From a virus (Duplodnaviria > Heunggongvirae > Uroviricota > Caudoviricetes), in the IMG/VR virus record IMGVR_UViG_2531839622_000025: a stretch of DNA of 4,099 nt; one strand, 5' to 3'. Both the position numbers and the translations under genes were made by a program. Below the pieces are notes generated by a model. It made no database searches, was not told the DNA's origin, and saw only the letters and a program-made list of their open reading frames with translations. This document shows, one piece after another, positions 44-4,099 of this stretch (the stretch's first letter is position 1; every line of letters begins with the position of its first letter).

Positions 44-88
44 CCCCCTCCGCACGCACATGCGACCATGCCGCACAGGGAGGGAAAG

Positions 89-2926: not shown

Positions 2927-3034
2927 GGGTGTACTCAAATAATACAATGCTATAGTAAATCTATAAGTGCATAACTATTTCCTGATCTTTTCCCAAAATA
3001 GATGACAGGATAAAAAACATTCCAATCTTTTACA

Positions 3035-3069
3035 GGCTTTGGATAAATCGTATCAAAGCCTATTTCTTC
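3035..3069 (+). terminator. Weak terminator-like hairpin downstream of the cargo gene
   Basis: ggctttg (3035-3041) / caaagcc (3054-3060), 7-bp stem with a 12-nt loop, followed by tatttcttc. The T-tract is imperfect and the stem is short. Confidence 0.2.
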
Positions 3070-3110
3070 AAGAGTTAAATCACCGCTTTTCGCTCGAAAC
3101 GGACTGGCTG

Positions 3111-3139
3111 TTGGAGTATGAGCCAGAACAACTTAGAAT
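3111..3139 (+). promoter_or_regulatory. Putative ogr promoter (-35 TTGGAG 3111-3116, 17-bp spacer, -10 TAGAAT 3134-3139)
   Basis: Hexamers read from sequence; RBS aagggagg at 3157-3164 precedes ATG 3170. P2 ogr is known to have its own promoter. Confidence 0.25.
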
Positions 3140-3169
3140 AGCCCCTGCACTACGTTAAGGGAGGTCGCT

Positions 3170-3430
3170 ATGTTCCGTTGTCCGCTTTGTGGCGCATCAG
3201 CCCGCATCCGTACCAGTCGTCCGGAAAATGATTCAAACACCGTGCGGCAAAAGTATTACCAGTGTAACAATCTAGAATGCGGCGTATGCTTCTCAACACT
3301 GGAAGCTTTTCATAAATTCACATCGAAACACGCCTCCGGCGTTCACTCTTCAGAAGGTATCCCGTGGCATGAGCTGCCAGCTTCACACAGGGGAAACAAT
3401 CAGATGAGTTTGCCTTTGCCTCAAAATTAA
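3170..3430 (+). CDS. ogr: Ogr/Delta-family zinc-finger late transcription activator
   Basis: 86-aa ORF starting MFRCPLCGASARIRTSR...YYQCNNLECG; Cys-X2-Cys...Cys-X4-Cys arrangement and N-terminal MF.CPLC...ARTSR match P2 Ogr / E. coli OgrK as I recall them. Strong RBS. Located downstream of D as in P2. Confidence 0.88.
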   Translation: MFRCPLCGASARIRTSRPENDSNTVRQKYYQCNNLECGVCFSTLEAFHKFTSKHASGVHSSEGIPWHELPASHRGNNQMSLPLPQN

Positions 3431-3439
3431 CAGGCAGAA

Positions 3440-3468
3440 TTGCCGGAGTAACAAAAAAGCGATAGATT
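3440..3468 (+). promoter_or_regulatory. Putative promoter of the hok-like transcript (-35 TTGCCG 3440-3445, 17-bp spacer, -10 TAGATT 3463-3468)
   Basis: Hexamers read from sequence; predicted start near 3475 coincides with the 5' element (3475-3483) that is complementary to 3819-3827. Confidence 0.25.
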
Positions 3469-3490
3469 ACGCGCGGGTGCCTTTCGGCTG

Positions 3491-3703
3491 ATGGTCGGAG
3501 GGAATACCCGAAGGCCAGATGTGGAAAGGCCCCGGAAAACATCTCTGTTTAACCGAGGCCCTAACCGCATTACCTTGACAAGTGAAAGGTTAGCGCCTCT
3601 CCGGAAAAGGAGCAAGTGCTATGTCGCAAAAATCGCTTACGGCCATCACGTTCTGTGTGACGGCAATCCTCATCATCTGGATGTTGCACGGTTCGCTGTG
3701 TGA
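3491..3703 (+). CDS. mok: mok-like overlapping reading frame (translational coupling partner of hok)
   Basis: 70-codon ORF in a different frame that begins upstream of and overlaps most of the hok-like ORF, as in plasmid R1 hok/mok/sok. An alternative GTG start at 3521 is preceded by AAGG. The product is probably not functional as a protein. Confidence 0.35.
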   Translation: MVGGNTRRPDVERPRKTSLFNRGPNRITLTSERLAPLRKRSKCYVAKIAYGHHVLCDGNPHHLDVARFAV

Positions 3704-3761
3704 AATACGGATGAGCTTCTGGGGAGCGGAGTTTGCGGCGTTCTTACAGTGTAAGCAGTAA
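3621..3761 (+). CDS. hok: Hok/Gef-family type I toxin (small membrane peptide)
   Basis: 46-aa ORF MSQKSLTAITFCVTAILIIWMLHGSLCEIRMSFWGAEFAAFLQCKQ: N-terminal hydrophobic helix, SLCEIR and EFAAFLQCK blocks resembling the Hok family (closest in my memory to HokA, ..SLCELHIKQESYELAAFLACK..). RBS aaggag at 3607-3612. Below the length cutoff of the supplied ORF track. Confidence 0.72.
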   Translation: MSQKSLTAITFCVTAILIIWMLHGSLCEIRMSFWGAEFAAFLQCKQ

Positions 3762-3850
3762 GGAAACCGCGACGGGGGAGCTATCCCCCGTCAATCGGTT
3801 GCCAGGGTAAGGCCGGATAAGGCACCCTATCTCACAGATATGAACAACAA

Positions 3851-3885
3851 ACCCGCAGCGTAAAAACTGCGGGTTTTCTTTTTGG
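3851..3885 (+). terminator. Rho-independent terminator (probable 3' end of the hok-like transcript)
   Basis: acccgcag (3851-3858) / ctgcgggt (3867-3874), 8-bp stem with an 8-nt loop, followed by tttctttttgg. Confidence 0.6.
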
Positions 3886-4029
3886 TGCCCTCACCGCCTT
3901 GAAACAGTGATAAGACTATAAGACAAAGCCCGCAATGTAGCGGGCTTACTCCCCTCACCCTCCACTGAATGTGGACACACAGTGGAACGAAGCGGCATAA
4001 GATATTATAAATCAATCAGTTATTGAAAG

Positions 4030-4055
4030 AAAAAAGGCCGCAGAGCGGCCTTTTT
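4030..4055. terminator. Bidirectional rho-independent terminator
   Basis: aaaaaa-ggccgc-aga-gcggcc-ttttt: perfect 6-bp GC stem flanked by an A-run and a T-run, so it can function on either strand. Confidence 0.6.
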
Positions 4056-4099
4056 AGTTAGATCAGATTACTCGTCTTTGGGCGAAGCGTTTTCGACCC

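Follow-up and report, generated by a model that had tools for sequence, protein, structure and literature searches.

The hok-like gene near the end of the DNA stretch analyzed here (4,099 nt in full, hereafter the window) is bracketed by two complementary 9-nt sequences, and the question raised by this locus is whether these sequences represent the pairing ends of a regulated toxin mRNA or an inverted repeat of some other origin. The pairing of hok mRNA ends has been known since the 1990s, and the present locus shares with hok/sok (parB) of plasmid R1, the paradigm of type I toxin-antitoxin systems, both a Hok/Gef toxin and a pairing between a 5′ element (tac) and a 3′ fold-back inhibition element (fbi). 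Membership of the Hok/Gef and tac/fbi family is established, and with a probability of roughly 0.9 the two 9-mers constitute tac and fbi of a hok-family type I toxin mRNA, encoded by a hokW-like cassette that a P2-like prophage carries at its right end, beside ihfA. The analysis establishes the sequence elements, the pairings predicted for them and the conservation and covariation described below; the transcript ends, processing, Sok expression and toxicity at this locus are those that we infer by analogy with R1 hok/sok and with hokW-sokW of prophage Sp5.

The segment used for searching (positions 3400–3950, 551 nt) matches E. coli O157:H7 strain Z885 at 100% identity, and the window as a whole covers the right end of a P2-like prophage whose integration site adjoins ihfA. 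In order, it carries a tail gene D homologue, a PIN-domain open reading frame, ogr, the hok coding sequence, a terminator and the 3′ end of ihfA. The coding features and the hok Shine-Dalgarno sequence (SD) are as follows:

68–1198: homologue of tail gene D
1424–2926: AT-rich open reading frame of 500 aa with a PIN domain
3170–3430: ogr
3607–3612, plus strand: hok SD, AAGGAG, read from the sequence
3621–3761, plus strand: hok coding sequence, 46 aa, from the open reading frame list, Pfam and RefSeq
After the terminator, last in order: 3′ end of host ihfA

The product of the hok coding sequence scores 29.9 bits (E = 4e-7) in Pfam family PF01848 (HOK_GEF), for which the cutoff is 22, RefSeq labels the 46-aa protein a Hok/Gef family protein (WP_000078916.1), and over a thousand E. 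coli genomes already carry the gene under a Hok/Gef annotation. Prophages have been described as enriched in hok (bioRxiv 10.1101/2025.08.07.668861).

The original prediction, that positions 3475–3483 and 3819–3827 are perfectly complementary over nine nucleotides, was exact on re-reading: GGGTGCCTT at 3475–3483 has as its exact reverse complement AAGGCACCC at 3819–3827, with 335 nt between the two. By itself a 9-mer inverted repeat is of no significance in 4.1 kb. Perfect 9-mer inverted pairs at a spacing of 200–500 nt number 14 in the window, a count that includes overlapping k-mers, against ∼5.4 (sd 3.0) expected from dinucleotide shuffles of the whole window. That about five such pairs are expected in a window of this kind, and that the region holds several other imperfect inverted repeats of 9–13 nt, would suit a functionless repeat that brackets the hok gene by chance. 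Chance is nevertheless a very improbable explanation, in the first place because the 5′ arm is the transcript start as anchored independently of the repeat, position 1 of Rfam model RF01794 falling at 3475. The probability of a perfect complement to the first 9 nt of the transcript in the 139-nt 3′ UTR is ∼5e-4 (0.0006 in 5000 shuffles and 0.0005 analytically), conditional on the 5′ arm being transcript nucleotides 1–9.

The elements predicted around the 5′ end of the transcript are the following:

3440–3468, plus strand: predicted hok promoter, with −35 TTGCCG (3440–3445), a 17-nt spacer and −10 TAGATT (3463–3468), read from the sequence
3475–3489, plus strand: tac, the 5′ end of the hok mRNA, with core GGGUGCCUU (3475–3483) and an extension to 3489, from the Rfam anchor, folds and conservation
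3493–3509, plus strand: partner of tac in a metastable hairpin, from fold prediction
3524–3535, plus strand: upstream complementary box (ucb), from an inverted repeat and folds
3553–3599, plus strand: Sok-target hairpin, from an inverted repeat (12 nt, 92% complementary), formed in the truncated fold only
3555–3558, plus strand: GAGG, the counterpart of the R1 mok SD, in the 5′ arm of the Sok-target hairpin
3588–3599, plus strand: dcb, the 3′ arm of the Sok-target hairpin

The promoter, as read from the sequence, would put +1 at ∼3475. A consensus promoter scan of the window did not call it; the positions of its hexamers are kept in homologues (TTGC.. / TA.A.T), and the spacer diverges. Rfam RF01794 aligns at full length (model positions 1–157) to 3475–3634 with E = 5.8e-9; its 48.4 bits fall short of the gathering score, which is 59. 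All hokW-like leaders likewise score below the gathering score (31–57 bits), and the leaders of other hok-family members (srnB, flm, pnd and the hokA-E group) score 78–134 bits. RF01794 is named ‘sok’ yet matches the sense strand of the hok leader.

Downstream of the hok stop codon, three further elements would determine the 3′ ends of the RNAs:

3771–3792, plus strand: G+C-rich post-stop hairpin, an inverted repeat of 9 perfect bp
3811–3827, plus strand: fbi, with core AAGGCACCC (3819–3827) and an extension at 3811–3817, from folds and conservation
3849–3883, plus strand: Rho-independent terminator, with its stem at 3849–3876 and the end of its T-run at 3883, from a terminator scan and an inverted repeat

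The arrangement is that of R1. The intact R1-type locus retrieved for comparison (L016) has GGCGCTT at +1, a hairpin at +342–359, AAGCGCC at +390–396 and then a terminator hairpin, and the published R1 mutations G4/C5/T6 and G345/C358 fit these coordinates (PMC9841398). The hairpin at 3771–3792 matches the R1 hairpin at +342–359 in position and is predicted, by analogy, to act as a road-block to 3′ exonucleases and so to form the 3′ end of a truncated, active mRNA of ∼320 nt; disruption of the R1 hairpin destabilizes the truncated species, Tr-hok (PMC9841398). The fbi core lies at +58..66 relative to the hok stop, and in all subfamilies compared it is found 53–69 nt past the stop. The terminator is predicted to end a primary transcript of ∼409 nt and, on the same analogy, is the counterpart of the terminator that yields the 441-nt species of R1. 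Initial R1 hok RNAs are 441 and 398 nt and the truncated RNA is 361 nt, the full-length ends being described as ‘blunt-ended’ (PMC1635323); the corresponding RNAs predicted from the window are ∼409, 353 and 320 nt. The order of elements in the R1-type locus, together with the published isoforms, makes a position of fbi upstream of the terminator the standard layout, so the reservation originally attached to the pairing, that its 3′ element falls short of the extreme 3′ end, is no obstacle: in R1 as well, the fbi at +390–396 precedes the terminator hairpin. The distance first given between this element and the terminator, ∼50 nt, was roughly right, in that the element ends ∼56 nt before the end of the T-run at 3883 and 22 nt before the stem. 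A second sequence that could compete as an fbi partner, GGTGCC at 3884–3889 past the terminator, was rejected since it is not conserved in homologues.

Minimum-free-energy and partition-function folds were computed for RNAs extending from 3475 to 3827 (353 nt), to 3883 (409 nt) and to 3794 (320 nt). Whole-transcript folding, which had been suggested as a check on the pairing, joins the two elements in both of the longer RNAs, with eight pairs (3475–3482/3820–3827) at probabilities of 0.93–1.0. The ninth pair (3483/3819) has a probability of only 0.36, because the register of the extension competes for position 3483. With the extension (3483–3489/3811–3817) the helix reaches 15 bp, interrupted by a 2-nt bulge. 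The fold z-scores of the 353- and 409-nt RNAs are −6.8 to −7.3, and forcing the last 17 nt to be unpaired costs 14 kcal/mol. In these closed forms ucb (3528–3535) pairs with 3553–3560, which contains GAGG. In the fold of the truncated 320-nt RNA the 5′ end switches to ucb (3524–3533), 3555–3559 pairs with 3595–3599 in dcb, and the hairpin 3555–3566/3588–3599 forms. When only the first 30–50 nt are folded, as for a nascent transcript, nucleotides 1–15 of tac are predicted on thermodynamic grounds to pair with nucleotides 19–35. The folds thus give tac three mutually exclusive partners, namely the metastable-hairpin partner, ucb and fbi. The three states predicted by folding here are also those of R1 hok mRNA, in which the nascent RNA forms a metastable hairpin, the full-length RNA is closed by tac/fbi pairing, and the truncated RNA is open, with tac/ucb and SD/dcb pairs (PMC9841398).

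Conservation was examined in 42 distinct hokW-like sequences. The set covers P2-like prophages of E. coli at a number of integration sites, Stx phages (933W among them), an IncI plasmid and chromosomal copies, and it extends to Salmonella and Klebsiella oxytoca. A search of viral contigs gave 80 loci, all with an identical protein and many ending 3 nt after the stop, which were used for downstream context, and a search of genome contigs gave five loci. The pairing, whose lack of conservation in homologues had been named as evidence that would tell against it, is kept throughout the 42 homologues and covaries across subfamilies. The 9 nt of tac are invariant among the 42. Variants of the fbi core GGCACCC carry C-to-T changes at four positions and an A-to-G change at one, all of which keep G-U or U-G pairs; only in two loci is this wobble rule broken, by a G-to-C change at the innermost pair of the core. 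MAFFT shifts the fbi of two loci (L004 and L008) by 2 nt and so produces cells scored as ‘other’ at pairs 2 and 6, both loci having GCACCC. Chance does not account for both arms being kept in 42 homologues while their flanks diverge, nor for fbi substitutions that are almost all compatible with wobble pairing.

The other helices are similarly maintained. The tac/fbi extension shows compensatory changes from GC to AU and from GU to GC, CG or UA, and a second covariation, UA to CG and CG to GC, links tac positions 10–14 to the ucb side. Since the tac extension covaries with both ucb and the fbi extension, the covariation is coupled, as would be expected only if both conformations were selected. 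The tac/ucb helix is 98% paired in the 42 sequences, with two-sided changes at 4 of its 12 pairs, the SD(GAGG)/dcb helix is 96.8% paired in the alignment, and the post-stop hairpin is 98.9% paired, with compensatory changes at five of nine pairs. Taken whole, both structures are 92–93.5% paired against 36–45% for slid controls, a comparison that is generous, one of the aligned sequences having itself supplied the structure. Within the hokW-like subfamily (42 sequences) the 7-bp core of the tac/fbi helix has no two-sided compensatory change; because tac is invariant there, the covariation of the core rests on comparison between subfamilies.

For that comparison the 5′ ends were anchored by the Rfam model and matched to the 3′ UTRs without alignment. 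The R1, pndA and srnB loci were retrieved with their protein sequences, which were confirmed by 100% matches, and four R1-type loci (L015, L017, L120 and L121) were left out, insertion sequences cutting into or flanking the hok locus in each. The paired sequences are:

This locus: tac GGGUGCCUU, fbi AAGGCACCC
srnB: tac GGGUGUCUG, fbi CAGACACCC
Proteus plasmid copy: tac GGGUGCUUG, fbi CAAGCACCC
pndA: tac GGGCGC, fbi GCGCCC
R1 and an Atlantibacter plasmid: tac GGCGCUU(G), fbi (C)AAGCGCC
hokE: tac GGUGCCU, fbi AGGCACC

The 5′ ends of srnB and of the Proteus copy each match their own UTR over 9 nt, and the UTRs of other subfamilies over no more than 6 nt. The tac type of the present locus matches 6–9 nt in most UTRs of its own group; elsewhere its matches do not exceed 6 nt, apart from the UTR of hokE, whose tac is nearly identical to this type. 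Two members of the group (L112 and L116) give matches of only 0–4 on this perfect-match measure owing to wobble substitutions in fbi. The cognate match of pndA is only 6 nt and unspecific, the pndA 5′ end also matching R1-type UTRs over 7–8 nt. Double changes across subfamilies fall at tac/fbi positions 4, 6, 7 and 9, and in the Rfam register, where R1 +1 is model position 2, R1 differs from this locus at two compensatory positions. Different yet mutually complementary sequences at both positions in other subfamilies also argue against a chance repeat. The pair therefore stands out because its 5′ arm is at the anchored start, its 3′ arm is at the fbi position of the family, homology to Stx-phage hokW ends at 3827, and both arms change together across subfamilies. 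At the level of sequence the comparison reproduces, on independent data, a known property of the family, tac/fbi covariation having been reported by Gultyaev, Franch and Gerdes (1997), as cited in PMC9841398.

Homology to the hokW of Stx phages spans exactly 3454–3827, and among P2-like prophages and other contexts the downstream sequence diverges within ∼10 nt of fbi, from which it follows that the conserved hok cassette ends at fbi. Arms so placed might instead act at the level of DNA, as the ends of a mobile hok cassette or as a prophage attachment or recombination site. The block shared with Stx phages, plasmids and chromosomes does have its boundaries near the arms, opening ∼21 nt ahead of the 5′ arm and ending either with the 3′ arm or within ∼8 nt of it, and the cassette is situated at the right end of the prophage. 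Such a role is nonetheless highly unlikely. The 5′ arm is internal to the block, with the promoter ahead of it, and does not mark the edge of the block; the arms are also retained away from P2 attachment sites, in Stx phages between lom and the gene that follows, on an IncI plasmid and beside rpmE. The terminator region, which is common to P2-like prophages at different chromosomal sites and differs in the other hok contexts, runs on beyond the 3′ arm, integration sites diverging only at ∼3886. Substitutions that tolerate G-U pairs follow the rules of RNA wobble, which recognition of DNA would not predict, and no recombinase is associated with the cassette.

If the arms do pair in RNA, the pairing could serve only to protect the 3′ end and stabilize the mRNA, with no translational or antisense switch. 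In R1 the end-pairing is said to slow 3′ exonucleolytic processing (PMC1635323), and the lack of a conserved mok frame (see below) deprives the translational half of the R1 model of that support here. Stabilization alone would, however, leave unexplained a tac/ucb helix that is 98% paired with compensatory changes and a tac extension that covaries with ucb as well as with the fbi extension, and refolding of the kind predicted would uncover or form the Sok-target hairpin, so that this more limited role is rated quite improbable.

An antisense partner for such an mRNA can be proposed from the sequence of the opposite strand and its predicted fold:

3520–3615, minus strand: predicted Sok-like antisense gene, from sequence and fold

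Its candidate promoter consists of a −35 TTGCTC (complement of 3610–3615), a 17-nt spacer and a −10 TAACCT (complement of 3587–3592). These hexamers fall in invariant or nearly invariant columns of the 42 sequences, and in position and spacing they agree with TTGCGC/17/TATCCT in the R1-type locus, which we take to be the R1 Sok promoter. The consensus promoter scan of the window did not call the Sok-like promoter. The predicted antisense RNA, of ∼60 nt, would run from ∼3580 down to ∼3520 and fold into a single-stranded 5′ tail and a stem-loop. In the homologous Sp5 locus, experiments identified the sokW RNA as an antitoxin that depends on RNase III and Hfq (PMC8621323).

With these elements a cycle of the textbook hok/sok type can be proposed, a mechanism that is already known and entails no new principle. 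Transcription would start at ∼3475, and tac would be held in the local metastable hairpin during synthesis. Once the 3′ UTR had been made, tac would pair with fbi at 3811–3827 and close the molecule, ucb (3528–3535) pairing with the GAGG region (3553–3560), and the end-paired full-length message would be silent. Termination would give the ∼409-nt primary RNA, and a second long inactive form of 353 nt, flush with fbi, is expected by analogy with the 398-nt species of R1. Slow 3′ exonucleolytic trimming to the hairpin at 3771–3792 (∼320 nt) would then remove fbi, upon which tac would switch to ucb and the hairpin 3555–3566/3588–3599 would form. The refolded RNA would be both translatable and the target of the Sok-like antisense RNA (∼3580 to 3520), which, while the prophage is present, would trigger decay of the mRNA. 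The prophage copy of hok thus probably keeps a complete RNA control circuit, judging by its sequence, and probably represents a live toxin-antitoxin module and not a decayed remnant. Such a module has a bearing on how the prophage is maintained and possibly on the release of phage, as demonstrated with hokW-sokW of Sp5. The hok interpretation originally offered for the locus is upheld by the HOK_GEF match, an RF01794 alignment that begins at position 1, the end-pairing folds, and conservation together with covariation.

In R1, translation of hok requires the overlapping mok reading frame. Of the 42 homologues, 11, the hokW types of Stx phages among them, have no frame that stays open from GAGG past the hok AUG. 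The frame 3491–3703 of the window is open, the sole candidate starts near GAGG being AUU (3569) or UUG (3575), and it has no Pfam match. On these reading frames, the mok frame is not conserved in the hokW-like subfamily, the one departure from R1, so that coupling of hok translation to mok as in R1 possibly does not hold here and the step that activates translation may differ. The missing mok counts against a locus that works exactly like R1, not against membership of the Hok/Gef and tac/fbi family. Tentatively, and as a possibility more doubtful than probable, the hokW-like subfamily could have kept the tac/fbi/ucb/dcb switch and lost a functional mok, refolding then controlling hok translation and Sok binding directly. 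If so, it would represent a mok-independent variant of the hok/sok mechanism, with no translational coupling to a leader reading frame; the mildly informative point of the locus is that the subfamily apparently manages with no conserved mok frame.

The resemblance to R1 extends to ucb, dcb and the metastable 5′ hairpin, to the succession after the stop codon of a G+C-rich road-block hairpin, ∼30 nt, fbi (∼60 nt past the stop) and terminator, and to a candidate antisense promoter of equal position and spacing. Unlike R1 hok/sok, the present locus is carried by a prophage rather than a plasmid and has no conserved mok frame; its Hok is 33% identical to that of R1 in alignment, its tac/fbi pair is GGGUGCCUU/AAGGCACCC as against GGCGCUU/AAGCGCC, and its predicted RNAs are shorter (409/353/320 nt as against 441/398/361 nt). 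A tblastn search of plasmids with this Hok found no classical plasmid Hoks. The srnB and flm systems of F, pnd of IncI/IncB plasmids and the chromosomal hokA-E loci share the architecture, the fbi position and covarying 5′ and 3′ sequences, but belong to other toxin subfamilies.

Another of the closest known systems is hokW-sokW of Stx prophage Sp5 and phage 933W, established by experiment as a type I toxin-antitoxin system in Sp5 (PMC8621323). The study reported smaller hokW RNAs to which no identity was assigned, and it makes no mention of tac or fbi and contains no mapping of RNA ends (PMC8621323). The cassette at 3454–3827 is ∼81% identical to hokW-sokW in nucleotide sequence, the Hok proteins are 74% identical, and the 9-nt tac and the 7-nt fbi core GGCACCC are the same in both. 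The two differ in setting, hokW-sokW lying after lom in lambdoid Stx phages and the present cassette after ogr at a P2-like right end. In the Stx phages, unlike here, no terminator follows fbi and the next open reading frame starts there, and the contiguous tac/fbi helix is 7 bp in hokW-sokW as against 9 bp at the present locus.

The distribution of the hok cassette is that of a portable module (window 3454-3836; retrieved homologous loci L001-L014 and L019-L103), with homology that begins near the -10 box and extends no more than ~10 nt past fbi, the 3′ UTR partner of the tac element at the mRNA 5′ end. In P2-like prophages it follows ogr and in Stx phages it follows lom; it is also carried by an IncI plasmid and by chromosomes, where it adjoins rpmE or serS. 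Salmonella, E. coli and the hokE locus provide examples of tandem duplication, the paired copies lying at the following positions:

L104, 601-741 and 1095-1235, tandem hok cassettes
L008, 89-229 and 563-703, tandem hok cassettes
L122, 1-98 and 448-600, tandem hok cassettes

The second copy in L104, the only second copy examined, comes with a leader, tac and fbi of its own.

IS elements truncate or flank several plasmid-borne hok loci of the R1 type (L015, L017, L120, and L121). L015 (∼340-370) and L121 (∼350-375) have each lost tac and the upstream leader to an IS150-family element, with the toxin coding sequence and 3′ UTR still intact in both. A similar leader junction is present in L120 (∼350-370), which has an IS4-family element downstream, and in L017 the leader has been replaced and IS elements lie on both flanks. 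The hokW-like copy of Salmonella locus L108 (∼477-603) retains the coding sequence, the road-block hairpin and AAGGCACCC, but its leader 5′ of ∼477 has been exchanged for unrelated sequence and tac is thereby lost; this copy is probably decaying.

The frame overlapping hok that resembles mok was assessed in the homologue alignment (A3):

3491-3703, + strand, mok-like frame overlapping hok

The hokW-like subfamily shows no conservation of this frame, and all frames are closed between GAGG, the counterpart of the R1 mok Shine-Dalgarno sequence, and the hok AUG in 11 of the 42 homologues. The only starts available to the window's frame near GAGG are AUU or UUG.

Directly 3′ of fbi, U-rich bases are frequent (window 3828-3835 and the equivalent positions of loci L010, L016, L018, L023, L112, L117, and L119), as in the following examples:

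window 3828-3835, UAUCUCAC
R1, UUUAUAAA
Proteus, UUUUCAAU
pndA, UUUCUUCU
Salmonella, UUUCUC

The U-richness is not universal, since srnB has GACAUGCC at this position. One idea suggested by these sequences is that a ‘blunt’ 3′ end may be defined partly by the long-range tac/fbi helix together with the U-tract. Immediately 3′ of the terminator, the tac core GGTGCC is repeated within GGTGCCCTCACCG (3884-3896), which is 77% complementary to 3814-3826. The homologues do not share this GGTGCC and have GGTTCC, GGTATC or GGTGTC instead, and the repeat is therefore probably due to chance.

Elsewhere in the window, a large reading frame precedes ogr:

1424-2926, + strand, 500-aa ORF between tail gene D and ogr

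Pfam assigns a PIN_4 domain (33.9 bits) to the N-terminus of its product, and the region is AT-rich, with a GC content of 35-42% against 47% (3001-3500) to 56% in the flanks. The ORF looks like a prophage moron and is possibly a defence gene; PADLOC returned no match for it.

[quoted passage not shown] In effect it is a model of the hok leader, that is, of the complement of Sok, and the strand of the antisense RNA should not be inferred from the strand of its matches. The enterobacterial sRNA STnc540 gives a partial match below threshold (3970-4099, −; 30.4 bits) that overlaps the 3′ end of ihfA and the ihfA terminator (4027-4055), and in Salmonella diarizonae a full-length STnc540 match (L023 909-1095, −; 185.7 bits) is situated downstream of the hok copy.
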